Virus genome (UHGV): UHGV-0010228
DNA from: a virus
Strand: one strand, 5' to 3'
DNA length: 64,000 nt
Part shown: positions 32,164 to 59,738 of the stretch, piece after piece
How the letters are laid out: every line of letters begins with the position of its first letter
How positions within the stretch are numbered: position 1 is the first letter of the stretch
Made by a program: the position numbers and the translations under genes
The notes under the pieces: model-generated
Databases searched by the model: none
Told to the model about the DNA's origin: nothing
The model's input: only the letters and a program-made list of their open reading frames with translations

Positions 32164-33978
32164 ATGTCAACAACAGACAAATTAACATATGATTCTACAA
32201 ATAAAAAGAGATCTAAAACTGTGAGTCAATATGAATTATCAAAAACTTATAGTTTTAATACTAAAGGAAAATATAATGATTCAGATATAGATTTAACAGT
32301 AGATATAGATTTAGAACGACTTACTTCTGATGGAACCGCAGCACCAACTTATGTTCTTACAGGAAAAACTTATTATAATCGCGGAAAATTATTAGAAGGT
32401 AAAATGCCAATAATTAATACTATTTCACTCAATGTATCTTCGATGGATGTTGGTTCTACAATAACTAGTGCAAGTTCTTCAAGTTATACTTTAGAATCAA
32501 TAATTAATGATACTCTAACAGACCTTAAATCTTACATTTATTCAGCACTGGATAATGGAATAACAACGGTTAGGTTTTCGATAACAAATTCTAATCTGGC
32601 AGCCTCAATAGGTCTCACTGCAGACAAAATACTTAAAGGTAATACCATATTAGGCATTGATGGAACTGTGGAGAGCGGCTCAACTTTAGGAAAAGTATAT
32701 AAACAATCAAATTTTATTATGTCTTCAACTGATAGCTCGATCTGTGTAACGAAATTTTTTAATAAAATATTAGTAGCTCAGGTTAATAACGCGTTATATT
32801 ATTCTGAGGATGGAATAGATTGGACTATATCGAATATTACAACGGGTGCATATTATAGTAAGGCTAATGAAGTCAGTGGATATGCATTATTATATGGTGA
32901 AGCTAAGGGGTGTTTGTATTCTACTGATGGAAAAACGTGGACAAATCTTTCCGGTTCTCTTAGTACAGCAAATATATCGTATGCCACAGTATTGCTTGAT
33001 AGCCTTTATGTATCACCAATTAGGAATGGTTTATGGAGAACGTTAGGTACCATTGGTACTACCATGTATAGGTGTTTCTCACTTACTTCAGCCGAATATT
33101 ATGACAAAATTGTTACTTTTGGAGCAGGGAAAAAACAAATAATAATTGCAATAGGTGGCGATAGTAATACTGGTATAGTATATTATATGAAAGGGTCAGA
33201 TACATCATGGACAAAATATGATACTATTACATCTAGGATTGATAACATAATTCAATTAGATAATGGATTATACGTCGCAACATCAAGTGTTGGAAGTCAT
33301 TCGTATTATTCATCGGATCTTATTACATGGAATACCCATAGTGGAATAGAAGATTATGATGTATACACTCCGGGTGCACTTGCTTATGTTAGTGATAAAC
33401 CAATTAATGGTAGTCGATATATTGGAATTGCTAATAATAACACTGGACTTTATTATTCTGTAGATGGTAAAGAATGGATTCAGTCTAGTTTAACTGATGT
33501 GCGTTACAGTAGTAGTTCCAATAATAATGGTTTATATATATCAAATAATTATAATTTTGCTATTCAAGTATTTACTTTGAATAGTGCTGGCTCACAGAAT
33601 GGAATATGGTATACTACTAATGGTATTGATTGGACTAAATCAAACAGATCTGGTACTTATTTAGATCCAATTGTAGAACTACCGTATTATAACTTATTAT
33701 ATTCTGGATATTATTATTCTGAGGATAATGGTAAGACTTGGGTCCGGTCAAACTTATCACATAAAATATATAATGAGTACTTATACGTCACTGATTCAAT
33801 AATATGTTATAACTATGACACATATTTATATTATTCGACTGATGGTAAAGTATGGACCAAAGTTAATACAAACCATATGTCAGGATTAACATTCGGCGGT
33901 ATTAGTACTTCAATTGTATCTATTAAAGGCCGAATTATTGTTCCTGACGGCAAATTGGGATTTTTATACTCAGAATAA
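32164..33978 (+). CDS. receptor-binding protein with BNR/Asp-box-like beta-propeller repeats
   Basis: TAGGAGGAAA RBS; repeated YYSxDGxxWT motifs; ADKILKGNTILGIDGT module. Confidence 0.7.
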   Translation: MSTTDKLTYDSTNKKRSKTVSQYELSKTYSFNTKGKYNDSDIDLTVDIDLERLTSDGTAAPTYVLTGKTYYNRGKLLEGKMPIINTISLNVSSMDVGSTITSASSSSYTLESIINDTLTDLKSYIYSALDNGITTVRFSITNSNLAASIGLTADKILKGNTILGIDGTVESGSTLGKVYKQSNFIMSSTDSSICVTKFFNKILVAQVNNALYYSEDGIDWTISNITTGAYYSKANEVSGYALLYGEAKGCLYSTDGKTWTNLSGSLSTANISYATVLLDSLYVSPIRNGLWRTLGTIGTTMYRCFSLTSAEYYDKIVTFGAGKKQIIIAIGGDSNTGIVYYMKGSDTSWTKYDTITSRIDNIIQLDNGLYVATSSVGSHSYYSSDLITWNTHSGIEDYDVYTPGALAYVSDKPINGSRYIGIANNNTGLYYSVDGKEWIQSSLTDVRYSSSSNNNGLYISNNYNFAIQVFTLNSAGSQNGIWYTTNGIDWTKSNRSGTYLDPIVELPYYNLLYSGYYYSEDNGKTWVRSNLSHKIYNEYLYVTDSIICYNYDTYLYYSTDGKVWTKVNTNHMSGLTFGGISTSIVSIKGRIIVPDGKLGFLYSE

Positions 33979-39339: not shown

Positions 39340-40365
39340 ATGCCTAGTACAATACGTGGATCACTTGTAGTTCCCCCTAAAGGTAATTCTACAGGAGGAT
39401 CTGGTGGATTTGTAATTACTGTAGATTCTGATGGAAACCTTGATAAATCTTGGGGTGAAATAATCACCGCAAATAATGAAGGTCAGAATTTAATTATAAA
39501 AACCGTAGATGCCAATGGAAATGAACGTATTTTATATTTAGACAATATTGATGTAGATTCAACTACAAATATTGGTGATATCACATTTGTAAGTGGTACT
39601 GTTGATGGTGATGCTTTACAGTTAATATTATCATCTACTGATGGCGTTAATCATACAAAAACCACAACAAATGTAAATTATGTTGTAGCAGGTGCTGATG
39701 GTAAGTTAGATGGAAATTCTATTCCATCAGCATCAGCAACTACTGCAGGTGGAGTTAAATTATCCGATGCTACAGATTCAGATTTAAATGCAGCTACCGG
39801 TGGAACTGCTGCTACTCCTTATGCAGTTAAACAGTTGGCTACTTTAGTTGGTGAAAAGACATCATTTAGAGAAGTTACTCAGGCAGAATATGATGCATTA
39901 GTAGCAGCAAATACTGATGATCCTGAAGTTATCTATGTAATAACAGATTCGGATGATAGTAAGATCATTGGTCTTATAAATGAAACTATTCATCAGAATC
40001 AGACAACGTGGTATGGGACTTCTTCTACTGTAGCAAACTCTCCGGGTAAAACTGTAACTACTACAGGTGGAGATTTTGTACTCAAAGCAGGTAAGAAAGT
40101 AACTGTTAAGTTTACTAATGGTAATACTGCATCAGATATAACTTTAAATGTTGATGGTATGGGTATAAAGAAAATAACTAGATATGGTACTGTAGCTTCA
40201 GGAATATATCCTTGGAGTGCGGGTTCAGTTATTGATTTTATATACGATGGTGAAAGTTTTATAGCATTAAATGCAACTCCTACTATTCGTATAGGGACTA
40301 AAACTCCATCAGCATCAGATGGTATAGATGGTGATATCTTCTTAGTTTATGATGCTAAATCATAA
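39340..40365 (+). CDS. tail fibre protein with TIRGSLVVPPK N-terminal anchor motif
   Basis: AAAGGAGG RBS; Gly/Thr/Ala-rich. Confidence 0.7.
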   Translation: MPSTIRGSLVVPPKGNSTGGSGGFVITVDSDGNLDKSWGEIITANNEGQNLIIKTVDANGNERILYLDNIDVDSTTNIGDITFVSGTVDGDALQLILSSTDGVNHTKTTTNVNYVVAGADGKLDGNSIPSASATTAGGVKLSDATDSDLNAATGGTAATPYAVKQLATLVGEKTSFREVTQAEYDALVAANTDDPEVIYVITDSDDSKIIGLINETIHQNQTTWYGTSSTVANSPGKTVTTTGGDFVLKAGKKVTVKFTNGNTASDITLNVDGMGIKKITRYGTVASGIYPWSAGSVIDFIYDGESFIALNATPTIRIGTKTPSASDGIDGDIFLVYDAKS

Positions 40366-40387
40366 TAAGGAGGTGTGTCATCTTATT

Positions 40388-42403
40388 ATGTCTGAATATA
40401 TAATAAATGAAATCGGTAGTGCAGAGATGTCTATACCAGACGGTCTTTCAGAAGGTGATACTTTAAGATTTAATATTACAAACTCTGATGAAGCAACTGC
40501 ATATACTGGAACTATAATGAACTGGACAGTTCCTATGGACTTAGTTGTTCAGATAGATGCATATGGATCTAGAGGTTCATATGGTAACTTATATACATAT
40601 GGATTAACCGATACATCTAGATCCGGTAATGGTGCACATGTTGGTGGAGTATTTAATTTATCAGCAGGCTCTGAATTATTAATATTAGTTGGTCAACATG
40701 GTAAAGATGCTATGACAGGTACAGGATCTACTAGAGATGGTGTATCTGGTTGCGGTGGTGGAGGAACATTTGTTGTCCTTAAAACTGACGAATCAACTGG
40801 AAGTTTATTTGTTGGATCTGATACTAATGGATCTAAAGCTGCATATGGTGGATGGTATGTTTCGCCATTAGTAATTGCTGCAGGTGGCAATGGATCTAAG
40901 GATAATGGATATTCCGGAACTGGTCCCGGTAGAGGTGGTTTATCTACAACTTATACATCAAAACCTAGTTATTCATCATCATTGACAGGTGGTGGATTTG
41001 ATACTGCATATGGTACAAATAATAGCAATTCATCTTCATATGGATATGGTTTATCATTCTTAAATGGTGGATTAGGATCTCAGTATGCATATAGTAGATC
41101 TAGTATGACACCTAAAGCCGGATTCGGTGGCGGTGGAGGAAACTCCGATGATGGATATGGTGGTGGAGGTGGTGGATACTACGGCGGTATCCAATCTGCT
41201 GCTGCATGCTCATATGTTTCTCCTGATGCTGAATCAGTTATTACTGGTGAGGACGATATTAATGCTGGTGATGGATATGTTATTATAACTATAATTGAAG
41301 GAGGAAAAATATATTCTCCTGAAGTATATATGAGAGATAATGGCGAGATTCATAAATATTCAGATATGAAAGTATCTGTAAATGGCGAATTAAAAACTAT
41401 TAAAAACTTCTATTCTAAAATGGATGGAAAATGGGTTAAAATGGCAAGAGAAATTGTAGTATATGAAGCTGGTAAATCATGGACTCAATCTAATATAGAT
41501 AGTGGAAGTTTTTATAGTGTATATAATGCTAATGGTATATGGGTAGCTTGTAGTGGTGGTAATGGTCTTTATTATTCTACAGATGGTAAAGTATGGACTC
41601 AATCTAATATAACTAATGATGCTTTTCATACTGTATATAATGCTAATGGTATATGGGTAGCAGGTAATAATAATGGTCTATATTATTCTACAGATGGTAA
41701 AGCATGGACTCAATCTAATATAACCACTGGAGGTTTTAGACGAGTATATAATGCTAATGGCATATGGGTAGCATGTGATGCTGATGGTATTTATTATTCT
41801 ATGGATGGTAAATCATGGACTAAATCTAATATGACTTATGGAACTTATCATGATGCATATAATGCTAATGATATATGGGTAGCAGGTGGTAGTGGTAGTC
41901 TTTACTATTCTACAGATGGTAAAGTATGGACTCAATCTAATATAGATAATGGTAGTACTACCATCTTTTTCTCAGTATATAATGCCGATGATATATGGGT
42001 AGCAGGTAGTGATAATGGTCTTTATTATTCTACAGATGGTAAAGTATGGACTCAATCTAATATAGATAATGGTAGTTTTAATACTGTATATAATGCTAAT
42101 GGTATATGGGTAGCTTGTAGTGGTGGTAATGGTCTTTATTATTCTACAGATGGTAAAGTATGGACTCAATCTAATATAGATAATGGTAATTTTAATACTG
42201 TATATAATGCTAATGGTATATGGGTAGCTTGTAGTGATGGTAATGGTCTTTATTATTCTACAGATGGTAAAGTATGGACTCAATCTAATATAGATAATGG
42301 TAATTTTAATACTGTATATAATGCTAATGGTATATGGGTAGCTTGTAGTGATGGTAATGGTCTTTATTATTCAGAAACTAGAACAGAATATGTCAATAAA
42401 TAA
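40388..42403 (+). CDS. receptor-binding protein: Gly-rich domain + ~11 tandem BNR-like 38-aa beta-propeller repeats
   Basis: TAAGGAGGTG RBS before ATG 40388 (track ORF starts at 40349); GFGGGGGNSDDGYGGGGGGYYGG; repeats LYYSTDGKVWTQSNIDNG.FNTVYNANGIWVA. Confidence 0.7.
   Translation: MSEYIINEIGSAEMSIPDGLSEGDTLRFNITNSDEATAYTGTIMNWTVPMDLVVQIDAYGSRGSYGNLYTYGLTDTSRSGNGAHVGGVFNLSAGSELLILVGQHGKDAMTGTGSTRDGVSGCGGGGTFVVLKTDESTGSLFVGSDTNGSKAAYGGWYVSPLVIAAGGNGSKDNGYSGTGPGRGGLSTTYTSKPSYSSSLTGGGFDTAYGTNNSNSSSYGYGLSFLNGGLGSQYAYSRSSMTPKAGFGGGGGNSDDGYGGGGGGYYGGIQSAAACSYVSPDAESVITGEDDINAGDGYVIITIIEGGKIYSPEVYMRDNGEIHKYSDMKVSVNGELKTIKNFYSKMDGKWVKMAREIVVYEAGKSWTQSNIDSGSFYSVYNANGIWVACSGGNGLYYSTDGKVWTQSNITNDAFHTVYNANGIWVAGNNNGLYYSTDGKAWTQSNITTGGFRRVYNANGIWVACDADGIYYSMDGKSWTKSNMTYGTYHDAYNANDIWVAGGSGSLYYSTDGKVWTQSNIDNGSTTIFFSVYNADDIWVAGSDNGLYYSTDGKVWTQSNIDNGSFNTVYNANGIWVACSGGNGLYYSTDGKVWTQSNIDNGNFNTVYNANGIWVACSDGNGLYYSTDGKVWTQSNIDNGNFNTVYNANGIWVACSDGNGLYYSETRTEYVNK
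41468..42372 (+). repeat. tandem array of 114-bp coding repeats (BNR-like blade units); last three units >97% identical
   Basis: Units at 42061-42174, 42175-42288, 42289-42370 differ by 1-2 nt. Confidence 0.85.
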
Positions 42404-43687: not shown

Positions 43688-46228
43688 ATGGCTTGGTATG
43701 AATATCGAGGAACTACTAATGACAAAGTAATCCCTATAAATACTACAGCAACTGCTGAAGATATAGCAACTGGTAAAACTGTATATAGTAATGGTGAAAA
43801 AATTGTTGGTAATATAGCATCGATAGGAATTAAAACATATTCCCCAGGAAAGGCAAATATTACTATACCTAAAAATTATTATTTATCCGGAAATCAGACT
43901 ATAAAAGGCGATTCAAATTTAATTGCAGCTAATATTATAAAGGGAAAATCAATATTTGGTGTAACTGGAACAACCAACGTTGTTAATTATAGAGCTGATA
44001 CAAAAAACTATACTAGTAGCAGTGAGAATTGTGGCGAAGTGTACAATGGTGTGACAATACCATATATAAATGATGCTATGTTGTTTGCGTATCCATCAGA
44101 AGCTCAAATTTCTAATAATCGATACTCATCTGGATCGAATCTATTTTTTAGTTCTCTTGGTGGTTATTTATGGTATACTATATCATGGTATTATAGATAT
44201 AACTCGGTTTATCAAAAAGCAAAATATTTACTATATGATCATACACTATCTACAGTAACTGCGATATATGGTAATCACTTAGTTAAATTTTTTCAATATC
44301 AATATTATATTAACAATGAATCATCTTATGAATGTATTTCAACATATGACTCGAATGTATCATTTAGTTCAAATTATATATCGATGATATTGAGTGCTGA
44401 TGATAAATATGTGTATATCAGCGATGTTGGAACGCCATCAACAACAACGGTATATATGGCTAATAATAATTCTGGTAGTAGTAAAAACATTACACTCACA
44501 AATAAAATTCCATATACATTATGTAGGCCATATTATGAAGAAGAAAAAAATCTATTATTTCATAAAAGGATTTATCTTACAGGAAGCGATTCTGCAAATG
44601 GTGTATATTATTCATATGATGGAAAAATATGGACTAAGACCAGTATATCATCAGGACAATTTAATATGTCTGCTAATGTTAAAAGTAGATTAGGATTTAT
44701 CTCCGTTGGTTCTACATTATACTATTCATATGACGGTATATCGTGGTCTCAATTTTCGAATACTGTTGCAATGGGCTCTTGTCAAAAATTTGTCAGTGGT
44801 ACAAATTCAGGACAAAGTATGAATGCTGCTATTGGAAGTGGTGGAAATGAAGGATTGTTATGTATCTCACCTTTTAGTGATCTTTCATATGGTGGAGAAA
44901 TTGACACTACAAACATAACAACGGGAAATTTTCATTATTTAGCGTCAAGTAGCGAATATATAATTGCAGCATCTGGTGATGATGGTACGCCTATATATTA
45001 TAGTTATAATGGATATTCATGGGCACAATATGGATCAATAACTTCTTCAGTAAAATGTTTAGAATATGCTAACGAAATATTTGTATTAGCTACTACCGAT
45101 GGTATGTATACAAGCAATAAACAGTGTAGTGGTTGGAAAAAAATATCTATCACTGATTCAACGATAGGATTTGATTTTGTTTTTTATGGAACTAATAAAG
45201 TTTGGGTCGGTGGATATAAAACATTAAATTATGTTTATTACTCAACCGATAATGGTACAACTTGGACTAAATCTGATGCAATATCCGGCAGTACAGGATT
45301 TAGTTCTGGATGTTACAATAGATTTACACAATTATATCTCATAGGTAGTTCGTCAGGAAATGGAATATATTATTCAAAAGATGGAATATCGTGGTATCCT
45401 AGTGAATTAACATCCCAAACTGTTAATAAATTTATGGTTACAAATACAAATGTTGTTGCATTGACAAATGCTGGGGTATATTATTCACATGATGGAGTTG
45501 TATGGAATATAACAAATCTTACAAATGCCATATATACAAAGATGAGTTACATTGACGTATTACAACGTCCAATAATCGATTATGATGTTCTATATGTTAG
45601 CACAGGAAGTTCAGATAATACTAATAATGGAGTATGCATGATCGCTGGTTATAATGGATATAATGGATCATCTTCCGGATCAATCATATGGTCAATAACT
45701 GAAAATTCATCAACATATGGAGCTATAATAGATATTATTACCGATATTGATAATCAATACATTTTTGGTCTATCTAAAAATGGATATCTGGTGGTTTATA
45801 ATATACGATCAAAGACATGTGTTGCTAAATTAGTCGATTCTGCTGGTGAAATGTGTAGAATTTCATATAACGCAGGAATAATAGCTGTTGGTTATATGTC
45901 TAATAATACAAATGTTATAATTAAGACTTTTATATTAAACTATGGAAATACAGATGGAATTAAAAATCTCATAATCAGGGACTTTACTTCAATCACAACA
46001 ACATCTTCAGCGTCAGATAATCCACCAAAAATCAAAGCACTTACAATTAATAATGAGGGGATAATTAAGTTTGGATTATCAAATGGGTATATATCAGCGA
46101 GTTATATATGTACAGGTGAATTATATGGCCAAAATATGTTAACATCTGAAGCTATCACAGGTTCACTTCCAGTGCTAAATGAAGTGGGGGATATTATAGG
46201 AACTAAATATTTTAAAACATTTTATTAA
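43688..46228 (+). CDS. receptor-binding protein, AWY-class N-domain + divergent BNR-like repeats
   Basis: GAAAGGAGATGA RBS before ATG 43688 (track ORF from 43646 is an upstream extension); N-terminus MAWYEY...NIIKGKSIFGVTGT; flanked by identical 53-bp terminator repeats. Confidence 0.7.
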   Translation: MAWYEYRGTTNDKVIPINTTATAEDIATGKTVYSNGEKIVGNIASIGIKTYSPGKANITIPKNYYLSGNQTIKGDSNLIAANIIKGKSIFGVTGTTNVVNYRADTKNYTSSSENCGEVYNGVTIPYINDAMLFAYPSEAQISNNRYSSGSNLFFSSLGGYLWYTISWYYRYNSVYQKAKYLLYDHTLSTVTAIYGNHLVKFFQYQYYINNESSYECISTYDSNVSFSSNYISMILSADDKYVYISDVGTPSTTTVYMANNNSGSSKNITLTNKIPYTLCRPYYEEEKNLLFHKRIYLTGSDSANGVYYSYDGKIWTKTSISSGQFNMSANVKSRLGFISVGSTLYYSYDGISWSQFSNTVAMGSCQKFVSGTNSGQSMNAAIGSGGNEGLLCISPFSDLSYGGEIDTTNITTGNFHYLASSSEYIIAASGDDGTPIYYSYNGYSWAQYGSITSSVKCLEYANEIFVLATTDGMYTSNKQCSGWKKISITDSTIGFDFVFYGTNKVWVGGYKTLNYVYYSTDNGTTWTKSDAISGSTGFSSGCYNRFTQLYLIGSSSGNGIYYSKDGISWYPSELTSQTVNKFMVTNTNVVALTNAGVYYSHDGVVWNITNLTNAIYTKMSYIDVLQRPIIDYDVLYVSTGSSDNTNNGVCMIAGYNGYNGSSSGSIIWSITENSSTYGAIIDIITDIDNQYIFGLSKNGYLVVYNIRSKTCVAKLVDSAGEMCRISYNAGIIAVGYMSNNTNVIIKTFILNYGNTDGIKNLIIRDFTSITTTSSASDNPPKIKALTINNEGIIKFGLSNGYISASYICTGELYGQNMLTSEAITGSLPVLNEVGDIIGTKYFKTFY

Positions 46229-47014: not shown

Positions 47015-50000
47015 ATGCCATGGTTTCCTACATGTGGAGGCGTTGATACATCAGACGCAAATGTAACTCCAGAAGATGTATTAGAAGGAAAAATAGTATA
47101 TTCACATAATGGCCCAGTTGTGGGCACAATACCAAGTTTACCAGAAAAAACCTGGATTCCAGGACCTGAAGAACAGGTAATTCCGGGAGGACATTATATT
47201 GCAGGTACACAGACAATTAAAGGTGATCCTAACCTTTATCCAGAAAATATAGTTAAAGGTAAAACTATATTTGGTGTAGAAGGCACAGGTATACCTGTGG
47301 AATTTAACGATCCAACATTTATTGAAAAATTGTGCGTATCAGATTTTAAAGGTAAAGTTGATTTCTCTAAAGATTCCGAATATTTCTATACTTATGGTAC
47401 TTCAATTATTAATAAACATAATTCGACAACTGGAGAAGTTATATGGTCTCAATCAATATCTGATGATACTAAAAAAATATATTCAAATTTATATATAACA
47501 CCAGATGATCTTCTTATATATTATGGATCTAAAAATGGATATTTAAATTCAATAATAGCAGATTCAGGAATTTCTCATTTAAGTGTTAAGGTATTAGATA
47601 CAACAAAATCTGTTGAATATATAAAGGGTATTGAAAATTATAAAGGTTCAACATTCAGCTTATTATTATTTGTGCCAAATACAACAGTTATTGGAAGGGT
47701 AGATTTTATTGACACGTCTACTAATAATATAGAAACAATTACTATACCATCTAGTTATTCTATCGATGTCGATGATAAGGATATCTATTATTATTGCAAT
47801 TCTTCTTCTCCAAGAAAGATATGCAAGATATGTACAGATTCAGCGGATAATTATGAAATTGAAACTGGAACTATAAATAGTTATGGAATACAACCTGATG
47901 GAAAATATTTATACACAGTAGCTAAGGTTGATAATACTACTGATAAATTATCACAGTATAATGCAGAAACTGGTGCATTAGTACGTAGTGTGAACGTTGA
48001 TGTAAACACCCGTGATAACTGCTCATTACTTATTACGGATAGTTTATCGGAATATATATATCTTCAAAATACTAGAACTATATATAGATACTCAACTGAT
48101 TTGTTGTTAAATTATGCTAATAACCCATTTTTATTTACAGATGGTACAGTGTCCAGTGCTGTTGATAGTGCTAGTGTTGATAGTAATGGAGAATATGTAT
48201 ATGTATCATATTTAAGTGAAGATACCTCTGAGTTGTATAAATATAAGCAGGTATTTGGATCAATATACCCATTGGAAAATCCGGATCCTTATATCAATAT
48301 AGATAGAATTATTAAGAGAAAGAAAGATACTTATAAAACATATGAAACCCCAGTAGAAATCTGGGATGATGAATATGATTCAGAAATTGACTCTATTAGT
48401 TGTACTGATGATGGTCATTATGTATACATATGCACGCAGAATAATGGATTTATAAAAATGAATTCTGTAAATAAGAAAATTATATGGTCATATAATGATG
48501 GTATGTCAGGATATGTAGTTGTAGATCATAATGATAAGTATGTATATGTAGCAACGAATAGTGCATTAACTAAACTTGACGCATCAAATGGTAATGTTGT
48601 AATTTCATTATCAGATTATGCAAGATCTAGAACTGCTGCATATTCTATACAGAATATGACTATTACAGATGATAATGAATATTTAGTATATATTAATAAC
48701 AATAGTAGCTCTGCAAGTAGTAGTAAAATTGTTAAATTTAAAACTTCAGATATGAGTGTTAAATGGGAAAAGACACCTCATACTAATTACATTAACCAAT
48801 TAGATTTAGTAAGTAAAACTGGAGATATATATTTCAATAAATCTTCTCAGATACCTATTGAAACGGATTATATTCTTCCATTCACTGGTGGTGTAAATAA
48901 TGTAGTATATTTTAATAGTAAATATTTATTATTACCTAATAAAACTTTCATTACTAATAGTGAAACTAATACAACTGAGTTTACTTATTACTTAGGCGAT
49001 ACTCTTAATATAGCGTATATGGAAAAGCACACTATTAGTACTGATGGGATGAATACTAATTTTAGCGATTATACGATAACCAAAATAGTTGCATCTTCAT
49101 ATGTGTGTATTATATATGTAAAAGGCATTGACAATGCATCATTAACTGAAAGTGAAACTTCATTAAATAAATATTATTATACTTATGATGGCGTAAATTG
49201 GAGTGAGGGTTCATTTGGTTTATACTGCCCAACGTCAAATATTATTAATTGTAGTAATACATTTATATATTCGGCATCGGATAAGAGTACATATAATAAA
49301 TTATTCTCATCATATGATGGAATAAATTGGACTGAGAATACTAATTATACAGATACATATACTAATGGTACTGTATGGGGATTAGGATATGTCAATTCAA
49401 GATATTTATTAGTATCTAATATATTACAATATTCTACAGATTTTAAAACTTTTAGTACTGCAACTATTGCTAGTTTGCCTAGTGAAACTGCTGTTGGTGA
49501 GAATTTTGCTAATAAATATGGAGAAATTCACTGTGTTTATATATATAGCAGATATTATTTAGCTTGTGCTGATGGAATATATTATTCGTCTGATTTAAAT
49601 ACTTGGACAAAATGTACATTTACTTATCCGACTAGTGCGGATTTTCCTTCCGAATTATCTTACCCATTATTAATGACCAACTATAGTAATTATATATATA
49701 TTATAGAATCTGCTAGTGGTAATACAGCTGAAATATCGAATTATGTAAGATCAATTTATATTACTTCAACATCACAGACATCTTTCAATGTAACTAATAT
49801 TAAAGCTGCACCATTATTAAGTGAAACATCATCAACATCAACATTATTTGTAACTGGTGGATGTGTAAGTGATAATGCTATTGCCGGTCTTTATTATTCT
49901 ACAGATGGTAAAACATGGACTCAGTCTAATCTAACAACTGGACTTTTTAGCGATGTGTGTAATTTTGATATATGGGTAGCAGGTAGTAGTGATGATGGAC

Positions 50001-53000
50001 TTTATTATTCTATAGATGGTAAAACGTGGACTCAATCTAATATAACAACTGGTCATTTTAGTGCTGTATATAATACTACTGGCATATGGATAGCAGGTAG
50101 TAGTATTTTTGATAGTAAAGGTCTTTATTATTCTACAAATGGTAAAACATGGTTTCAATCTAATATAACAAGCGGAGGATTCTATACTATAAATTATGCT
50201 AATGATATATATCTAGCTTGTGGGGAAGGACTTTATTATTCTACAGACGGTAAAACATGGGAAAAGACTACTGTGAGTGGAGGATATCTGACTAGTGGGG
50301 GTTTTAGAAATGCATATTACGCTGATGCTATGTGGGTAGTGTGTAGTAATGATGACTATTGCTCTTATTATTCTAAAGATGGTAAAGCGTGGGCGCAATG
50401 TGAACCAGCTGTCGAAGAGGATGTATTTTGTAATATAGTATATTATTCTAATAAGAGTATATGGGTAGCTGGTAGTGAGCAAAGTAATGGATTGCAATAC
50501 TCTACAAATGGTATGTCGTGGACTCAGTCTAATATAAGCACTGGAATTATTAGAACGGTGTGTTATGGTAATAATATAGTTATAGCTGGTGGATATAACA
50601 CTGGTATATATTATTCTACAGATGGTAAAACGTGGACTCAATCTAATACAACCACTGGATCTTTTAATTTACTTTATTATTATGAGGATATATATATAGC
50701 TGTTAGTGGCAATAATAAAGGTCTTTATTATTCTACAGATGGTAAAACATGGACTCAATCTAATATAACTAGTGGAAGTTTTATGACTTCTATAGGTGAA
50801 TCATACCACCCAGTTACAACAAATAACAACAATAATTACATCTACTGTAATAGTAGATTAGCATCTTTCCCTGCGGTTACTGCTGATGATACTCATAGTA
50901 ATACTAAATATAGTATTGGATCATTAGAGAATTCTAAAATTCAACAATTAACTTATCAGGATACTAGAACTACTAATACAACATATTACGGATTATCTAC
51001 ATTTAATAATTCAACAGCAATATTATTAGGTCAATTCGAAGGGGCGAATCAAATTACTGATAATTATGCATATTCTACAGATAGTGGAGCAACATGGACT
51101 GGTGCGCATATGCCTAAAAAAGGCGAATGGATACATGTCGGAAAATTAATGAGTAAATATATTGCAGTATGTAATAGTAGTAATAATTTAGCAATATATG
51201 AATCGTCAGATGGGAAATCATGGTCACAGGGATCTATAACAAATTCCAATGGTAACGCATTAGCAAATAACATGATATCTATAAATAACGATGAAAATGA
51301 TGTTAAAATAAAAGTAATAACTAGTCCACTTATATCATCATTTGCAATAATCGTTTATACAACAATTGGCATAAATGTTGAAGGATATTATGTTTCATCT
51401 TCATTAAGCACTGGAAGTGCATTTAAAGTACAAAATTTCTCATCAAATATGACATCAACCCCATTATGTGCTATAAACGATACTTCACAAAAATGTATGT
51501 TTTTAGGTTGGAGTAATAATGGTAAATTTATGTACAGTGATGATATGCTATTATCACTCATGAATGGTGATTACTATACTGAAGTTACATCTTCAGAATC
51601 AATATCAAACTGGGATATGTATTCTGAAATAACAGGTGTAAAACTTTCAGATACTCAATATTTAGTATCGATGCAACCAACTTCATCATCAAGCTTAGTT
51701 AAAGTAGGATTGCTCGATACAAGTGCAAATACTTTAACATTTAGAGCGTCAACGTGGTATAATGGTAGATTTGTTGCTCCAGCAAATGGTAAGTTATATG
51801 CACTTAATACTTATAGTGTAAATGGAAATAGTGGTGGAGGTAAATTTACATCTATAACAAACTATGACACAACTAATACTGTAAAAGATGATGTTCTTCC
51901 GTCAGATCTATCATCATCTATAAGTAAAAATGATAAAACATATACTACATTATGCTCTTCAGGTACAAATCTTATTACAGTTATAAATGGTGAACCATAT
52001 GCATATTATACTAAGAACCCATTAGTAATTTCTGGTGGTGATGATAGATATATTAGAGCTATAGATTTCTTAACTGGAAATACAATATGGTCATTCTCAT
52101 TATCATATGCTGCAAATGGTATATATGTAAGTGATGATAAGAAGTTTGTATATGCTACAGTAAATGGCAATTCATCATCAGCTAATCTTTATAAATATAA
52201 TATTAATGCTACTAATTTATCTTCAATGAAGTATTCTACTAATTCATATTCTAGTGCAATATTCGGTAATGGAGATAAGATATTTACTGTTAAAAGTTCT
52301 AATGGTGGTATATTAGCCGCATATGATCCTGAATATCTTACAAATGATTATTCACTTACAGGTGCTAATGATACATCAACTGGACAGGAATATGGTAGAT
52401 GTTTAACTTATGATTCTGCTGGTGATTATATATATGCTGGTACTTATATGAATACTGGCAAAGGCCATTTACATAAATATAAATTAAAAGAAATTGAATA
52501 TGAAAAGATAGCAAGGGTATATAAGACTACTACAACAGGAGAAGATACTGAGGGAAAGGTATGGACTCAATCTAATATAAATAGTGGAGATTTTTATACA
52601 GTGTATTATGGTAATAGTATATGGGTAGCCGGCAGTATTAGCGGTAAAGGTCTTTATTATTCTACAAACGGTAAAGTATGGACTCAATCTAATATAACTA
52701 GTGGAGATTTTAGATCTGTATATAATGCTAATGGTATATGGGTAGCTGCTAGTGATAGTGATAATGGTCTATATTATTCTACAGATGGTAAAGTATGGAC
52801 TCAATCTAATATAAATAGTGGATATTTTTATACAGTGTATTATGATAATAGTATATGGGTAGCTTGTAGTGGTAAAGGTATATTTTATTCTACAGATGGT
52901 AAATCATGGACTCAATCTAATATAAATAGTGGAGATTTTTATACAGTGTATAATGCTAATGGTATATGGATAGCTGGTGGTATTGATACTGGTCTTTATT

Positions 53001-53476
53001 ATTCTACAAACGGTAAAGTATGGACTCAATCTAATATAACTAGTGGAGATTTTAGATCTGTATATAATGCTAATGGTATATGGGTAGCTGGTAGTGATAG
53101 TGATAATGGTCTATATTATTCTACAGATGGTAAAGTATGGACTCAATCTAATATAGATAATGGTAGTTTTAATACTGTATATTATGCTAATGATATATGG
53201 GTAGCTGGTAGTAGTGTTAATAAAGGTCTTTATTATTCTACAGATGGTAAATCGTGGACTCAATCTAATATAACTAGTGGAGATTTTAGATCTGTATATA
53301 ATGCTAATGGTATAATTATTGCTGGTAGTTATAGTAGTAATGGTATATTTTATTCTACAGATGGTAAATCATGGATTCAATCTAATATAAATAGTGGAGA
53401 TTTTTATACTGTATATAATGCTAATGGTATATGGGTAGCTGGTAGTATTGATACTGGTCTTTATTATTCAGAATAA
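47015..53476 (+). CDS. giant receptor-binding protein (2153 aa) with multiple BNR-like beta-propeller arrays
   Basis: GAAAGGAG RBS; N-terminal module shared with 43688 and 55467; two arrays of near-identical 114-bp repeats (49876-50790, 52556-53473). Confidence 0.75.
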   Translation: MPWFPTCGGVDTSDANVTPEDVLEGKIVYSHNGPVVGTIPSLPEKTWIPGPEEQVIPGGHYIAGTQTIKGDPNLYPENIVKGKTIFGVEGTGIPVEFNDPTFIEKLCVSDFKGKVDFSKDSEYFYTYGTSIINKHNSTTGEVIWSQSISDDTKKIYSNLYITPDDLLIYYGSKNGYLNSIIADSGISHLSVKVLDTTKSVEYIKGIENYKGSTFSLLLFVPNTTVIGRVDFIDTSTNNIETITIPSSYSIDVDDKDIYYYCNSSSPRKICKICTDSADNYEIETGTINSYGIQPDGKYLYTVAKVDNTTDKLSQYNAETGALVRSVNVDVNTRDNCSLLITDSLSEYIYLQNTRTIYRYSTDLLLNYANNPFLFTDGTVSSAVDSASVDSNGEYVYVSYLSEDTSELYKYKQVFGSIYPLENPDPYINIDRIIKRKKDTYKTYETPVEIWDDEYDSEIDSISCTDDGHYVYICTQNNGFIKMNSVNKKIIWSYNDGMSGYVVVDHNDKYVYVATNSALTKLDASNGNVVISLSDYARSRTAAYSIQNMTITDDNEYLVYINNNSSSASSSKIVKFKTSDMSVKWEKTPHTNYINQLDLVSKTGDIYFNKSSQIPIETDYILPFTGGVNNVVYFNSKYLLLPNKTFITNSETNTTEFTYYLGDTLNIAYMEKHTISTDGMNTNFSDYTITKIVASSYVCIIYVKGIDNASLTESETSLNKYYYTYDGVNWSEGSFGLYCPTSNIINCSNTFIYSASDKSTYNKLFSSYDGINWTENTNYTDTYTNGTVWGLGYVNSRYLLVSNILQYSTDFKTFSTATIASLPSETAVGENFANKYGEIHCVYIYSRYYLACADGIYYSSDLNTWTKCTFTYPTSADFPSELSYPLLMTNYSNYIYIIESASGNTAEISNYVRSIYITSTSQTSFNVTNIKAAPLLSETSSTSTLFVTGGCVSDNAIAGLYYSTDGKTWTQSNLTTGLFSDVCNFDIWVAGSSDDGLYYSIDGKTWTQSNITTGHFSAVYNTTGIWIAGSSIFDSKGLYYSTNGKTWFQSNITSGGFYTINYANDIYLACGEGLYYSTDGKTWEKTTVSGGYLTSGGFRNAYYADAMWVVCSNDDYCSYYSKDGKAWAQCEPAVEEDVFCNIVYYSNKSIWVAGSEQSNGLQYSTNGMSWTQSNISTGIIRTVCYGNNIVIAGGYNTGIYYSTDGKTWTQSNTTTGSFNLLYYYEDIYIAVSGNNKGLYYSTDGKTWTQSNITSGSFMTSIGESYHPVTTNNNNNYIYCNSRLASFPAVTADDTHSNTKYSIGSLENSKIQQLTYQDTRTTNTTYYGLSTFNNSTAILLGQFEGANQITDNYAYSTDSGATWTGAHMPKKGEWIHVGKLMSKYIAVCNSSNNLAIYESSDGKSWSQGSITNSNGNALANNMISINNDENDVKIKVITSPLISSFAIIVYTTIGINVEGYYVSSSLSTGSAFKVQNFSSNMTSTPLCAINDTSQKCMFLGWSNNGKFMYSDDMLLSLMNGDYYTEVTSSESISNWDMYSEITGVKLSDTQYLVSMQPTSSSSLVKVGLLDTSANTLTFRASTWYNGRFVAPANGKLYALNTYSVNGNSGGGKFTSITNYDTTNTVKDDVLPSDLSSSISKNDKTYTTLCSSGTNLITVINGEPYAYYTKNPLVISGGDDRYIRAIDFLTGNTIWSFSLSYAANGIYVSDDKKFVYATVNGNSSSANLYKYNINATNLSSMKYSTNSYSSAIFGNGDKIFTVKSSNGGILAAYDPEYLTNDYSLTGANDTSTGQEYGRCLTYDSAGDYIYAGTYMNTGKGHLHKYKLKEIEYEKIARVYKTTTTGEDTEGKVWTQSNINSGDFYTVYYGNSIWVAGSISGKGLYYSTNGKVWTQSNITSGDFRSVYNANGIWVAASDSDNGLYYSTDGKVWTQSNINSGYFYTVYYDNSIWVACSGKGIFYSTDGKSWTQSNINSGDFYTVYNANGIWIAGGIDTGLYYSTNGKVWTQSNITSGDFRSVYNANGIWVAGSDSDNGLYYSTDGKVWTQSNIDNGSFNTVYYANDIWVAGSSVNKGLYYSTDGKSWTQSNITSGDFRSVYNANGIIIAGSYSSNGIFYSTDGKSWIQSNINSGDFYTVYNANGIWVAGSIDTGLYYSE
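49876..50790 (+). repeat. tandem BNR-like repeat array 1 in giant fibre gene
   Basis: Recurring ggtctttattattctacagatggtaaaacatggactcaatctaatataac units. Confidence 0.8.
52556..53473 (+). repeat. tandem BNR-like repeat array 2 in giant fibre gene (eight 114-bp units)
   Basis: Near-identical units e.g. 52677-52790 vs 53022-53136. Confidence 0.8.
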
Positions 53477-55466: not shown

Positions 55467-58400
55467 TTGGCATGGTATACAGCAGTTAATGCACATGATA
55501 CATCAGATGCTACTGCATCTGATAATGATATTAGAAAAGGTAAAACTGCATATGTTAATAATAAATTAGTTACTGGTACAATGCCAGAAAAAGCTGCTGC
55601 TACATATACACCATCAACGAAAGATCAAACTATAACTAGTGGAGTATATTTAGCCGGAGATCAGACTATAAAAGGAGATTCTAATCTCATATCTGATAAT
55701 ATAGTTAGAAAAAAATCAATATTTGGAGTTGAAGGAAATCAAATTCCTATAGAATTTAATGATCAAGTAAAGATGCTGAGTGGGATTACTCACGAAACTA
55801 TAACCTATGATAATGAAAAAATATTAACATCTTTTAATAAAAATACCAATGCCGCTGTAATAATGAGCGCAATTAGATTAAATGATGAAAATTATAATGT
55901 AACGAAAGTTTATTCATATAAGATATTATTTACATATTTGTCATTAGATACATATGATGTAGTATCATCATCAACATTCATTATTTGTAGATCTAAAATT
56001 GATGGTTATGCTGATAGTGATACTGATGAAATAATACAATCTAGAAATAACTTTACTACTACAAATTTCTTTCCTGTAACTGAAAGACCAATGATAACTA
56101 GTATTTCATTAGAAAATGATGGAATAGTACTTGTATCTATGAGAGGAATCAGTTCATACATTGGATCTGGTGCTAATTTTCAAAATATAGCAAAAATCGA
56201 TCTGAAAAACGGAAAATTGATATCAACAATGTCAATTCTTGATGATTATGTAAATCATATATCAAATGCAGTTAATTGTGTGAAAATGATTGATGATAAT
56301 ATTTATATAGATGGTCCTGCAACACAGCCGGGATTAAATTATATAACAGTTGATGGTGCATATTCAATATCGCCATACTCATCGGCAATTAATGGATATA
56401 TATTATATGAATATCATAATGATATAAGCACTGAACCTATACAATATTATGTTGTAACCGAACAATATAATTCATCGTTAGGTATATATGAACCAAAACT
56501 ATCTGAGAAAAAACAGATCCCAGCATATGGTTGGTGTATGGATAGATACTCTAGAATTATGCTTACTGATTATCATAATGCTAATGTCTGGGACTATATA
56601 TGTTATTTTAACGGATATTACTATATAATATTTGGTTTGGCATATGATGATCATTTATTAAGAACTACAGATTTTTCTAATTTTGATTATATTAGCTTTA
56701 CTGATGATTTTAAAATTTCATTTTACAGTAATCGAACTGCCATGGTATCTGCTCTTATTTCAGATACAGTAAATAATAAATTATTATTTTTATGCACTGA
56801 CGATCATCGTTTTGCTATATATGATGGTACTACTAATAAAACATCATATTTAGCCTTACCATATGATAACTATAATACAGGATATAATGGATTTACAACA
56901 CTTAGAAGTGCGGCATTTGACTATAATAAAACCTTCGTATTTCATTTTGGACAAAATAGTGCAAATTCAAAAGATTATCCAGATCCAACGAATAACTATA
57001 TTTTCGTGACAACAAATTATGGATCGTCATACACAGTTATTGACATTAAAGATATCTTTTCAGAAGCTATACAAAATCAGCTAAGCGGTTATTCGATTAA
57101 TTATGGCATTGGTCTTGGATATATAAATGAAGCTTTTTATATATTTTCAACAGCTAGAAATTCTAATTCATCGAGTTATAATAGCTATGTTATAATATCT
57201 AAATCTATTGATGGACTTAATTGGGAAACACCTACATTAGTATATAATAGCGACACATATTATACAACACATTCAAAAAAAAGTATTGCCGGTGATAGTA
57301 ATAATACTATAGTAATCATAACCACATCAGAACGAAATAATGATGATAGTACAAGAGTAGGATATATATATTCAAGGGATAATGGGGTATCATGGTCATC
57401 AATAAATACATTAAGATCTTCTTTTACTGCGAATGGTACTATCGCAACCTCAATTGCATATGGTAATGGAAAATTTATTGTTACAATTAGCTGTTCTGAT
57501 GATGATTATGTTAGAATATACTATAGTACAAATGGGTCGTCGTGGTCAAGCACATCTTTATCAATCAATAGTGATAAAGAGTGTTGTTATAGAGTTTCGT
57601 ATTGTAATGATCGCTTTATAATGATGCCATCATGGGGCTATAGATTTTTTTATAGCACAGATGGTATATCTTGGACATCATCTGCTGCGCTATATAATAG
57701 AGGATCATGCAAAATAACTATAAAACCATATATGCTGACTGATTCTAGATACTCATTGTATTTTAACAATTCTTCATATTCTTCACAATATCTTGAAAAG
57801 ATATTATACATTGTACCGGACTATTGTTCGAGTCTTGGTTGGAGCAGTTATGGTATAAATAAAACGATAGGAACTCTTGATGGCTCATCGTGGTATTTGT
57901 ATAAACGTAATGATTCTTTTTCTATTTCAGCTCCTGATTGGTTATCTGATACTTACTATCCTAATAAAAGTTACGAATGTGATGATGAGAAATCCTTTAC
58001 AAATAATATTTATATTGGCATGAGTTATGGTACAGACCCAACCTCATCAATATATGGAAAGTACCCATTTTACACAACTAATGGGCGACAGATATATGCA
58101 TGGACAGCAATGATTTCTGTGCTTGCTCAGCTTAAATCAATTACTACCAATATGGTTGATTATTTTTGTGTATTCTATAGCACATATTATAATAAATATT
58201 TAATTATACTTACTATATATGATAAACCGAATTCAAAACGTGTTACGTATATGTACTATACCACATCTATCGGAACTGCAACTGTAAATAGTTACAATTT
58301 TGATTCTGCCGATTTTCACGACAATTTTGTTTCTGCTATAGATATGTCCACTCTTAGTATGTATGAAGAATTAGATATTGGGAAAATTGTCTTTTATAGT

Positions 58401-59738
58401 AAAACTGGGCTCGCAATTTTTAAATTTAATGCCAATGGAACAGCTATTGATAGTGTATCAATCACAAAATTATCTTTTACTGATAATACTATATATAAAT
58501 ACAACAATAAATATTATACATATATTTCATCAAATGATAATATTAAAATTTATGAATCGTCAAATCTTTCAGATTGGACAACAAAGACTATTTCAGAATG
58601 TAATATTTTTAAAATAATAAATCAAGGGGTTGCCTCTTCCAATATTGGAAAGAGTGCTGAAAATTATAGTTATATGACTCTTGGCAACATTCGCTTATCA
58701 TTAGGGCTTATTCCATTTAGTGATAAGGGTTATGGTGGCGATGAAATTAACAGTAGTTATAGCAAATCGATATCGTCTCCTGGCATATATTTATATGACA
58801 GTAGTTCTAATATGGAATATTTAATGTGTATAGATGCTAATTTAATACGAATAGTTCGATCTCAAAAAATGAATAATATTGGTGGTGCGCTAGCATCTAA
58901 TAATTTAGTGCTGTTACATAGTCAAAAAAATAGTAAAAAGGTGCTATACTATATTCATCCAAAGTCTAAATCGGGGTATCGAACTTCATTATATAAACTA
59001 AATGATGATAGTGATTCATACACAATCATCGACGATTCCCCAAACGATTATATTGATGGCGATGTTATTGATATATTACAAATATCTGAAACTAGATATA
59101 TTACAGTAAATAAGCGCAGATTATTATCTACAGCTTTAGGTGTAGAATATGCCAGACCTATGGAATATCTTATTAATTATTATACTATAAATGAGGGTAA
59201 GGCAGATACAAAACAAAATACTATCGCTATATCTGTAAATCCTACTAATTATACATTTACATATTTACATAGTATATATTCTAATTCATATATATATACA
59301 ACATTCTTAAGAAGTGATAATAGGATGATACGATATACTCAAACAAATGATATTGAATCATCATTGACCGATATACCAGTATCATCTATATCAGGCGTTT
59401 CAACATTCGGTGGAGCACTTGTTACTTCGGATTATATATATATAATACGCACAAATAATATTTTACAAAAGCTATATCGAGGAACCACGTCAATTGGATC
59501 ATCAATATGGAAATTTACAATTCCACAGACAAATACTAATGAATCATTTATTAAAATTGATATAGATTCTAGGGGAAATATATGGTGTATTTCACAATAT
59601 AGAACTGTAATATTAGTAGAGTCAGTAGGCTCTGCATATCTCAAATCTAATAAAACTAATGATCCTGCATATATTGCAATAAATAACAGGTCTGAAGAAT
59701 ATAATGATCTATATGATGTTTTTTATATATATGATTAA
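55467..59738 (+). CDS. large receptor-binding protein (about 1424 aa), AWY-class N-domain, divergent Asp-box-like repeats
   Basis: Probable TTG start 55467 (GAAAGGAGTG 9 nt upstream) giving MAWYTAV aligned to MAWYEY of 43688; track ORF begins further upstream. Confidence 0.6.
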   Translation: MAWYTAVNAHDTSDATASDNDIRKGKTAYVNNKLVTGTMPEKAAATYTPSTKDQTITSGVYLAGDQTIKGDSNLISDNIVRKKSIFGVEGNQIPIEFNDQVKMLSGITHETITYDNEKILTSFNKNTNAAVIMSAIRLNDENYNVTKVYSYKILFTYLSLDTYDVVSSSTFIICRSKIDGYADSDTDEIIQSRNNFTTTNFFPVTERPMITSISLENDGIVLVSMRGISSYIGSGANFQNIAKIDLKNGKLISTMSILDDYVNHISNAVNCVKMIDDNIYIDGPATQPGLNYITVDGAYSISPYSSAINGYILYEYHNDISTEPIQYYVVTEQYNSSLGIYEPKLSEKKQIPAYGWCMDRYSRIMLTDYHNANVWDYICYFNGYYYIIFGLAYDDHLLRTTDFSNFDYISFTDDFKISFYSNRTAMVSALISDTVNNKLLFLCTDDHRFAIYDGTTNKTSYLALPYDNYNTGYNGFTTLRSAAFDYNKTFVFHFGQNSANSKDYPDPTNNYIFVTTNYGSSYTVIDIKDIFSEAIQNQLSGYSINYGIGLGYINEAFYIFSTARNSNSSSYNSYVIISKSIDGLNWETPTLVYNSDTYYTTHSKKSIAGDSNNTIVIITTSERNNDDSTRVGYIYSRDNGVSWSSINTLRSSFTANGTIATSIAYGNGKFIVTISCSDDDYVRIYYSTNGSSWSSTSLSINSDKECCYRVSYCNDRFIMMPSWGYRFFYSTDGISWTSSAALYNRGSCKITIKPYMLTDSRYSLYFNNSSYSSQYLEKILYIVPDYCSSLGWSSYGINKTIGTLDGSSWYLYKRNDSFSISAPDWLSDTYYPNKSYECDDEKSFTNNIYIGMSYGTDPTSSIYGKYPFYTTNGRQIYAWTAMISVLAQLKSITTNMVDYFCVFYSTYYNKYLIILTIYDKPNSKRVTYMYYTTSIGTATVNSYNFDSADFHDNFVSAIDMSTLSMYEELDIGKIVFYSKTGLAIFKFNANGTAIDSVSITKLSFTDNTIYKYNNKYYTYISSNDNIKIYESSNLSDWTTKTISECNIFKIINQGVASSNIGKSAENYSYMTLGNIRLSLGLIPFSDKGYGGDEINSSYSKSISSPGIYLYDSSSNMEYLMCIDANLIRIVRSQKMNNIGGALASNNLVLLHSQKNSKKVLYYIHPKSKSGYRTSLYKLNDDSDSYTIIDDSPNDYIDGDVIDILQISETRYITVNKRRLLSTALGVEYARPMEYLINYYTINEGKADTKQNTIAISVNPTNYTFTYLHSIYSNSYIYTTFLRSDNRMIRYTQTNDIESSLTDIPVSSISGVSTFGGALVTSDYIYIIRTNNILQKLYRGTTSIGSSIWKFTIPQTNTNESFIKIDIDSRGNIWCISQYRTVILVESVGSAYLKSNKTNDPAYIAINNRSEEYNDLYDVFYIYD

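Follow-up and report, generated by a model that had tools for sequence, protein, structure and literature searches.

Tandem short-Asp-box repeats in the virus genome UHGV-0010228: predicted eight-bladed beta-propellers as probable variable heads of paralogous phage proteins

Tandem coding repeats recur in a cluster of large genes within a stretch of 64,000 nt (one strand; here called the window) of the virus genome UHGV-0010228. Unit alignment defines the repeat as a coding unit of 111-120 bp (37-40 aa) with the consensus GKxWTQSNItsGxFxxVYnANGIWVAgsxxxGLYYSTD, and the arrays were divided into units at the G-K-x-W register. Tandem Repeats Finder reports four strong arrays in the window with periods of 111-117 bp, at 41470-42372 (period 114, 7.9 copies, 83% matches, score 1116), 52559-53469 (period 117, 7.9 copies), 49889-50171 and 62788-64000. 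Every array is in frame, on the + strand and within a long open reading frame (ORF), and a scan of the window for the motif [LIVQ][YFQ][YF]Sx[DNS]Gxx[WF] gave 41 matches, all on the + strand, across seven genes. The initial annotation, made from the sequence, had put about 11 units in the gene at 40388-42403 (gene A; Table 1), in which exactly eight were counted (41471-42376). Its figures of about 16 units in gene B and more than 10 in gene C agree with our counts of eight degenerate internal plus eight C-terminal units and of 10 full units plus fragments before the window end, respectively, and the divergent versions that it placed at 32164, 43688 and 55467 are present in genes 32164, 43646/43688 and 55386/55467. 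Two reverse-strand ORFs that overlap the arrays (41972-42283 and 50213-50641) are probably chance open frames of the repeated sequence.

Gene A consists of an N-terminal glycine-rich domain and a C-terminal eight-unit array that starts with the segment GKSWTQS and ends with GLYYSE; the protein collection contains an identical 671-aa sequence, P0121, encoded on a contig of 256,540 bp. Gene B comprises an N-terminal module shared with its paralogues, a PQQ_2/BamB-like stretch, an internal degenerate array (Bi), whose units are 55-77% identical in DNA, and a C-terminal array (Bc) that ends in LYYSE immediately before the stop codon. The N-terminal domain of gene C is 98-100% identical to those of the homologues P0003 and P0005, and unit 8 of its array is atypical (YSTVNIMVG), a position shared with P0002 and P0003, two homologues that have 16 units. 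Identity between units is uneven. Units A6 and A7 (42061-42174 vs 42175-42288) agree at 112 of 114 positions (98.2%), A7 and A8 at 96.5%, A1 and A6 at 94.7%, C5 and C6 at 93%, and Bc2 and Bc5, which lie three units apart, at 99.1%, whereas the majority of unit pairs have a DNA identity of 72-88%. The proposal that adjacent units are more than 97% identical is therefore correct for A6/A7 and nearly so for A7/A8 but does not extend further, near-identity being limited to A6/A7/A8, A1/A6, Bc2/Bc5 and C5/C6.

Table 1. Coordinates of the repeat-bearing genes, arrays and associated modules in the window
Feature	Position	Strand	Remarks
Gene A	40388..42403	+	671 aa; 684 aa if started at the upstream ATG, 40349 (ORF list, translation)
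Glycine-rich domain of gene A (ALK_LTK_GRD, PF12810)	40553..41296	+	Pfam E 4.8e-6
Array A	41471..42376	+	eight units of 37-40 aa; unit hidden Markov model, 8 matches of 65-82 bits
Units A6-A8, near-identical block	42038..42376	+	98.2% and 96.5% identity
Gene B	47015..53476	+	2153 aa
Array Bi (gene B, internal)	49907..50794	+	~8 degenerate units, aa 965-1260; unit hidden Markov model 21-61 bits
Array Bc (gene B, C-terminal)	52553..53473	+	exactly eight units
Gene C	61615..64000	+	runs off the window end
Array C	62773..64000	+	10 full units + fragments
Divergent paralogue	32164..33978	+	short and canonical Asp-box blades mixed; canonical SEDNGKTW at aa 519
Divergent paralogue	43688..46228	+	shared N-terminal module, irregular Asp-box blades
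Divergent paralogue	55467..59738	+	shared N-terminal module, BNR_2-like stretch
Shared N-terminal module, ~105 aa	47015..47330, 43688-44000, 55467-55780	+	40-42% identity among the three (alignment)
Upstream neighbour	39340..40365	+	PHROG phrog_295 'tail fiber protein' E 2e-5; Pfam Phage_fiber_2 weak

The fold of the units was predicted from an alignment of gene A residues 355-684 (684-aa reading) with array Bc and 13 homologous domains. The AlphaFold2 model of the gene A segment is all-beta, with a mean predicted local distance difference test score (pLDDT) of 95.4 and a predicted template-modelling score of 0.90. Its best matches in a Foldseek search of the PDB are eight-bladed without exception, headed by the designed proteins Ika8 and Tako8 (E 7e-12, template-modelling score 0.71) and followed by Fbw7/Cdc4 and BamB. 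Secondary-structure assignment of the model by DSSP gives four strands per unit, A (F..VYNA), B (IWVAg), C (GLYYS) and D (WTQS), and in all eight blades the order is GLYYS strand, TDGK turn, WTQ strand, so that the sequence S-T-D-G-K-x-W is predicted to form the turn that joins strands 3 and 4. The gene A array is thus predicted to be an eight-bladed beta-propeller, in agreement with the propeller reading of the initial annotation, and its register, with a strand-D segment at the start and a strand-C segment at the end, would fit a velcro closure of the ring that uses both array ends.

Unit counts in homologues point the same way. When the 120 best homologues were searched with the hidden Markov model of the unit, 58 arrays had eight units, 13 had nine, eight had seven, 14 had six and three had 16; on viral contigs of IMG/VR, 21 of 39 arrays have eight units. 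Eight, or 16, is a strong mode and is strongly preferred, the blade number being constrained and not drifting freely. Near-identical siblings nevertheless differ by whole units. In contigs that are ~99% identical, gene A encodes 671 aa with eight units (the window), 633 aa with seven (P0124) or 595 aa with six (P0001, contig L001), and the missing units fall exactly in the A6-A8 block, which is reduced to one or two units. Relatives of gene C measure 964, 1086, 1124 and 1162 aa, in 38-aa steps; in P0005 a fusion of C4 with C7 has removed three units, so that five blades would remain ahead of the conserved atypical unit 8. The 1162-aa form is identical on four contigs. The siblings that differ in copy number all appear to be metagenome assemblies, and two of them bear k141_... 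names, which we take to denote short-read MEGAHIT assemblies, so the differences could reflect either real unequal crossing-over or short-read collapse. The recurrence of the 1162-aa gene C form on four contigs argues that at least some of the variants are real. Ongoing unequal crossing-over that alters blade number, as proposed in the initial annotation, is compatible with the six, seven and eight units of the ~99%-identical contigs, but the counts are sharply modal at eight or 16 and collapse is possible. With unit counts differing among assemblies of near-identical phages, genes of this kind need checking in short-read assemblies.

The repeated motif S-x-D-G-x-x-W is one residue shorter than the canonical Asp-box SxDxGxTW of sialidase-type propellers, with which it had been compared. 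The Asp-box consensus is xx(S/t)x(D/n)xGx(T/s)(W/f/y)x and that of the short Asp-box (s-Asp-box), regarded as derived from it, is S/t-x-D/n-x-x-x-W/f/y; both lie between strands 3 and 4 and are structural elements on the conserved bottom face of the propeller (Quistgaard & Thirup 2009, PMC2716378). The same survey lists Asp-box propellers only as 6-, 7- and 10-bladed and finds the s-Asp-box usually once or twice per propeller. Among the 555 units compared here, the s-Asp-box positions are occupied as expected (S36 100%, D38 92% with N in the other 8%, W4 100%), and gene A has seven full s-Asp-boxes and a truncated terminal one. A motif scan found no canonical Asp-box in genes A and C; the canonical pattern is matched five times, with a final W in four cases, in the divergent paralogues and the central part of gene B, vs 0.6 expected from shuffles. 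Canonical boxes in the divergent paralogues (SEDNGKTW, STDNGTTW, STDSGATW, SRDNGVSW) tie the short and canonical forms together.

The photosystem II assembly factor Ycf48 is the best PDB match by sequence, with E 5.8e-9 in a phmmer search and 1.2e-7 in a profile search, over three to four blades, and the DUF6242 protein 9his_H is matched by the profile at E 1e-3; Ycf48 and DUF6242 proteins are the only solved sequence relatives. Ycf48 belongs to the BNR/sialidase clan (Pfam PSII_BNR). Pfam BNR itself gave no match on arrays A, Bc, Bi and C even at E up to 10. DUF6242 (PF19755) reaches 30.7 bits on array Bc, vs a cutoff of 29, and stays below it on array A (24.0 bits), and precomputed 'faint' matches to PF25852 (DUF6242_C) occur on many homologues; these two are the sole Pfam families that touch canonical units. 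The Asp-box likeness noted initially therefore stands as lineage, given the Ycf48 match (E 6e-9), the position between strands 3 and 4 and the canonical boxes in the paralogues, but the box is one residue short and Pfam BNR is not matched. The suggestion of glycan binding drawn from the same motif does not survive, because the Asp-box, in its short form as well, is structural, sits on the non-functional face and has never been seen to bind carbohydrate, the functional face being the opposite, variable top face (PMC2716378). Membership in the WD40, PQQ/BamB and sialidase families was rejected: the arrays have no WD or PQQ motifs and no Pfam WD40 match, and assignment to sialidases (GH33/GH58) fails on the eight predicted blades vs six, on the lack of an [FY]R[IV]P motif in the seven genes and on top-face loops that are the most variable part. 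Matches to MksE, PerRB and ribosomal protein L13 are short, lie inside the repeat and were dismissed as repeat-driven noise, and the NCBIfam CyaY model (TIGR03421, iron donor) scores 53.9 bits on the gene A repeats vs a curated cutoff of 53.25; this false positive stems from the repeats and could lead automated annotation astray.

The closest known proteins share parts of this architecture. Ycf48/HCF136 (seven-bladed; PDB 2xbg, 5oj3, 8am5) resembles the arrays in its regular blades of ~40-45 aa and in an S/T-x-D...W hairpin between strands 3 and 4 of each blade, but the hairpin here is one residue shorter, so that the alignment needs a one-residue gap in each box, and the domain here ends large phage or surface proteins, whereas Ycf48 is a stand-alone lumenal lipoprotein. 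As in the Asp-box family generally, one face is conserved and the other variable (PMC2716378). The s-Asp-box consensus of the GH32/GH43 five-bladed propellers and CBM32 is matched exactly and at the same strand 3-4 site (PMC2716378); here, however, it is found in every blade of an eight-bladed ring. DUF6242 proteins such as the BAM-associated lipoprotein 9his_H (NCBIfam BamI_Bacteroidota) are Bacteroidota lipoproteins, to which the matches are marginal and from which no function is transferable. BamB, the Fbw7/Cdc4 WD40 domain, Vibrio cholerae Bap1 (an adhesin) and the designed Tako8, Ika8 and Bagel8 match best in structure and agree in blade number and ring size, and the near-perfect internal symmetry of the arrays is like that of the designed propellers; sequence identity to these proteins is 5-15%, a likeness of fold and not of family.

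Variation among the units follows a fixed pattern. Entropy over the 555 units leaves G1, W4, S7, N8, N21, G22, W24, G32, Y35, S36 and D38 near-invariant and is highest at positions 13, 15 and 16 (D-A loop and start of strand A) and 29-31 (B-C loop); by propeller topology, both variable patches would lie on the face opposite the Asp-box hairpin. The differences between A6 and A7 and between Bc2 and Bc5 are all nonsynonymous and all in loops. Individual loop variants come back in various pairings, with DNGSFNT joined to CSGGN in A6 and to GSSVNK in Bc6, and with CSGGN also in A1; A6 and Bc6 are 93% identical and have a 69-bp exact tract in common. The longest exact repeats measure 135, 100 and 94 bp within arrays, the first in the A6-A8 block at offset 114 and the second in Bc2/Bc5 at offset 342, and 69 and 50 bp between arrays. 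At the level of strains, the window and contig L003 have 98% identity in the flanks and over the initial 1200 nt of gene C, and the C-terminal domain of gene C, before which the window ends, is nearly identical between P0003 (from L003) and P0005 (a homologue of the window lineage), whereas the gene C arrays of the window and L003 have an identity of about 75-80%, and units at the same position one of only 67-82%. The gene C array thus behaves as a hypervariable cassette, a pattern that would be expected of a host-range determinant. Recombination between genes, another proposal of the initial annotation, is made plausible by the A6/Bc6 pair and by the replacement of a whole array between 98%-identical genomes but is not proven.

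The window has a G+C content of ~30% and encodes a large terminase, a tail sheath, virion structural proteins and a baseplate-hub-like gene, the repeat genes lying downstream of the sheath, baseplate and tail genes. The terminase is nearest to those of the Bacillus jumbo phages vB_BpuM-BpSp, AR9 and PBS1 (32-35% identity), which makes the phage a remote relative of these three, and sibling contigs of 223-237 kb exist. A megablast search of positions 38000-47000 against deposited phages found no match. The domain itself is widespread: profile matches number 44,603 cluster representatives (50% identity) at E <= 1e-3 and 4,849 at E <= 1e-30, many of them giant proteins, 3,000-7,000 aa long, in which as many as 16 stretches are matched. 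A scan of IMG/VR viral contigs with the propeller alignment confirmed 110 stretches, a scan of the same collection with the whole gene A protein confirmed no relative, and the 50,697 records of deposited phage genomes gave one weak match. Bacterial copies come from metagenome-assembled genomes (MAGs) of gut Clostridia and Erysipelotrichaceae and from Senimuribacter, fused to BspA-type leucine-rich repeats (LRR), LRR_5 or Flg_new, and the propeller also occurs in giant-virus MAG contigs. On the 37-kb phage contig L036, a protein of 1840 aa with a C-terminal eight-unit propeller is encoded between a tail fibre/spike gene and an endolysin gene, and on phage contig L052 three consecutive propeller genes stand beside terminase small-subunit-like genes, not in an obvious tail module. 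Proteins with a similar propeller in BFVD carry tail-collar, intramolecular-chaperone, 'BNR repeat' and tail-fibre labels. Our literature search found no paper that describes this family (phage-borne Ycf48-like or eight-bladed propeller receptor-binding proteins).

Taken together, the eight-bladed short-Asp-box propellers probably serve an AR9-like jumbo phage with a low-GC gut host as variable heads for receptor binding, carried on a set of paralogous fibre or adhesin proteins. Each unit would contribute four antiparallel strands, with strands C and D joined by the short Asp-box hairpin, whose Trp, by analogy with solved Asp-box propellers, would pack on the neighbouring blade and stabilise the ring. 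One face would be made of the conserved A-B turn (NANG) and the C-D hairpin, and the top face of the variable D-A and B-C loops, which would give eight quasi-equivalent sets of loops about a pseudo-8-fold axis. The propellers would be carried at the distal C-terminal ends (in gene B also mid-protein) of at least six large paralogous proteins that are probably tail fibres or other proteins of host adhesion, and their top face would bind some repetitive structure on the surface of a low-GC gut Firmicute. Homologous recombination would find its substrates in the exact repeats of 50-135 bp; it would homogenise the scaffold codons, shuffle the variants of the loops, now and then exchange an entire array and give rise to alleles that differ in copy number, while selection for a closed ring would keep the count at 8 or 2 x 8. 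In this scheme the repeats, the fold as predicted, the mode of eight units, the placement of the variable residues and the hypervariability between strains are results, whereas location in the virion, receptor binding, the nature of the ligand and the mechanism of recombination are what we infer.

Propellers on phage receptor-binding proteins have precedents. Staphylococcus phage phi11 Gp45 contains a five-bladed platform propeller. The six-bladed GH58 endosialidase of phage K1F has its propeller in the distal part of a tail protein, as proposed here, and the Asp-box type is already documented in the K1F tailspike (cited in PMC2716378). The arrays differ from both in blade number and, compared with known phage propeller receptor-binding proteins, show no catalytic signature, occur as several paralogues with near-identical blade cassettes in one genome and are all but missing from the deposited phage genomes. 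Predicted viral propellers that are linked to tail-collar and chaperone domains have a similar structure. The Asp-box propeller of phage tails is a type already known, to which the arrays would add a variant.

Several points weigh against this interpretation. The propeller genes themselves have no tail-fibre match in PHROGs or Pfam, and the name 'fibre genes' in the initial annotation was not upheld as such: it derives from position and shared N-termini, the neighbour at 39340-40365 being the sole gene of the cluster that matches a tail-fibre family in the Pfam and PHROG searches. Presence of the proteins in the virion and binding to the host are presumptive. The fold is a predicted one, and the assignment of the loops to one face is based on propeller topology and on PMC2716378. 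A 2 x 8 double propeller in gene C is suggested by the unit counts, but a full-length model of the homologue P0003, built from an alignment of four sequences, reached a mean pLDDT of only 33. Arrays of six, seven and nine units are not rare, so that eight is a mode, not a rule. The ratio of nonsynonymous to synonymous polymorphism (pN/pS) among the units of the window, 1.71 in loop codons vs 0.51 in the scaffold with pS of ~0.22 in both, is suggestive only, the loop set having been picked from the variability of the same family and the unit pairs not being independent.

Other explanations are less likely. It is unlikely that the proteins are adhesins other than tail receptor-binding proteins, which decorate the capsid or tail surface or bind mucus glycans or other cells, the propeller being a general surface-adhesion module shared with bacteria. 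Its fusion to BspA LRR, Flg_new and LRR_5 surface modules in gut Clostridia and Erysipelotrichaceae, its presence in giant proteins and giant-virus contigs, the lack of a tail-fibre family match for the propeller genes and the position of the L052 genes would all agree with such a role, but the genes of the window sit downstream of sheath, baseplate and fibre genes, several paralogues have a common N-terminal module, as is typical of alternative fibres docking at one site, the L036 gene lies between a tail fibre gene and an endolysin gene, and hypervariability is confined to the array between 98%-identical strains, as expected for host-range determinants. We consider it unlikely that the arrays constitute a built-in diversification system that reshuffles the top-face loops by homologous recombination. 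Gene conversion and unequal exchange among ~40 blades in five or more arrays of one genome would in that case reshuffle loops within and between fibre genes and yield new eight-site binding surfaces and new host specificities, with neither a reverse transcriptase nor an invertase, akin to cassette-based antigenic variation, and the six- and seven-unit alleles of gene A would be by-products.

A catalytic function, as a glycoside hydrolase or depolymerase (of the sialidase, GH74 or 'beta-propeller depolymerase' type) that degrades host surface polysaccharide, appears quite unlikely. Blades as minimal as 37-40 aa have no insertions that could form a pocket for an active site, variability is highest in the top-face loops, whereas a conserved catalytic site predicts the opposite, none of the seven genes has a FRIP motif, and eight blades differ from the six of sialidases (GH33, phage K1F GH58) and the seven of GH74. 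Characterised Asp-box propellers are indeed mostly glycosidases (PMC2716378), beta-propellers of Enterococcus phage tail fibres have been called depolymerases by DepoScope (bioRxiv 10.1101/2025.05.13.653012), and the BFVD matches include an Achromobacter phage propeller annotated as a xyloglucan hydrolase, but the matches of genes 43646, 32164 and C to the NCBIfam 'F510_1955 family glycosylhydrolase', like all glycosidase-family matches, lie far under the cutoffs (48 vs 175 bits). Misjoining or over- or under-collapse of reads during assembly is a very unlikely source of the arrays themselves, individual copy numbers being more doubtful. Exact repeats of up to 135 bp approach both short-read length and the longest k-mer of short-read assemblies, siblings, two of them with k141_... 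names, differ by whole units in genes A and C, and several cluster members break off close to where the array starts or the N-terminal domain finishes (P0122 within unit 1). Against this, the arrays are in frame with a count compatible with a closed propeller, the eight units of the window equal the family mode, which emerged independently from hundreds of contigs of several assemblers and collections, four contigs have an identical 1162-aa variant of gene C, and the differences between units fall at specific codons of the loops, unlike those of random chimeras, so that at most individual copy numbers, not the existence of the arrays, are in doubt.

The propeller family is large yet without functional annotation. 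If the proposed role as receptor-binding heads is correct, it would represent a common, unstudied class of receptor-binding domain in phages of gut Firmicutes, with specificity held in two short loops per blade on a scaffold as regular as that of designed propellers, which would be useful for metagenomic host prediction and as an engineerable binding scaffold.

The modules adjoining the propellers and the neighbouring genes gave the following results. The ~105-aa N-terminal module (Table 1), which the gene at 32164 shares more weakly, is taken to be the attachment (adaptor) part. PF12810 matches residues 69-316 of the 684-aa reading of gene A with 27.2 bits vs a cutoff of 24.5, and the same glycine-rich domain matches phrog_22713, of unknown function, at E 2.9e-21. 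This domain is present in many relatives of ~645 aa; two of these, P0042 and P0069, have two glycine-rich regions and no propeller, and P0126 (361 aa), a close relative, has the glycine-rich domain without the propeller. Because such relatives have one without the other, the propeller and the glycine-rich module appear to be shuffled as independent units. Among the divergent paralogues, the gene at 32164..33978 matches NCBIfam F510_1955 below threshold and gene 55386/55467 matches Pfam BNR_2 with 25 bits, below the cutoff of 31.4. The PHROG and Pfam searches returned nothing for genes 30257, 32164, 34426, 36256(-), 38379, 43646 and 55386, and no Pfam match for genes 42422, 43187 and 46363, the first of which matched only PHROG families of unknown function. 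In the sibling contig L002, the next gene downstream of gene C (9713-16216, 2167 aa) has about seven divergent Asp-box-like motifs, and the set of propeller paralogues therefore extends past the window end.

Some further features of the region were recorded. A 260-nt inverted repeat with arms at 34258-34517 and 38027-38286 (98% complementary) surrounds two convergent genes, 34426-36213 (+, 595 aa) and 36256-38118 (-, 620 aa), which are identical at 29 of their first 31 residues, inside the arms, and have nothing else in common. This segment of ~3.76 kb (34258-38286) is missing from the 99%-identical sibling L001, which at 7748-7877 has a single copy of the flanking segment of ~130 nt, the window counterpart containing a 107-nt palindrome (34278-34384); the segment may represent a mobile cassette or two alternative fibre genes. 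Identical 38-nt perfect hairpins at 43560-43597 and 46250-46287, each followed by a run of T (AATTACGGTATATTCTATATATAGAATATACCGTAATT TCTTTTTTTT), are placed after genes 43187-43549 and 43646-46228 and look like a repeated intrinsic terminator that would split the fibre cluster into transcription units. Intergenic DNA at 34242-34408, 38136-38247 and 53718-53769 contains AT-rich tandem elements that repeat every 26-35 bp (TAATATAATAATTCTATACTATAGATATAATTATA and relatives); these may be phage promoters or recombination sites. G+C content rises to as much as 38% over 24000-32000 from a background of ~30%, and a gene in this region (26327-29428, 1033 aa) matches several PHROG families including phrog_7389 'tail fiber protein'. 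Between fibre-like genes, the 375-aa ORF at 60358-61485 (-) has weak matches to the phosphoesterase families DHH and DHHA1, both below cutoffs. Just past the window end, contig L002 has a weak RNA_pol_Rpb1_2 match at 17416-18906; AR9-like phages have split multisubunit RNA polymerases, which such a gene would fit.

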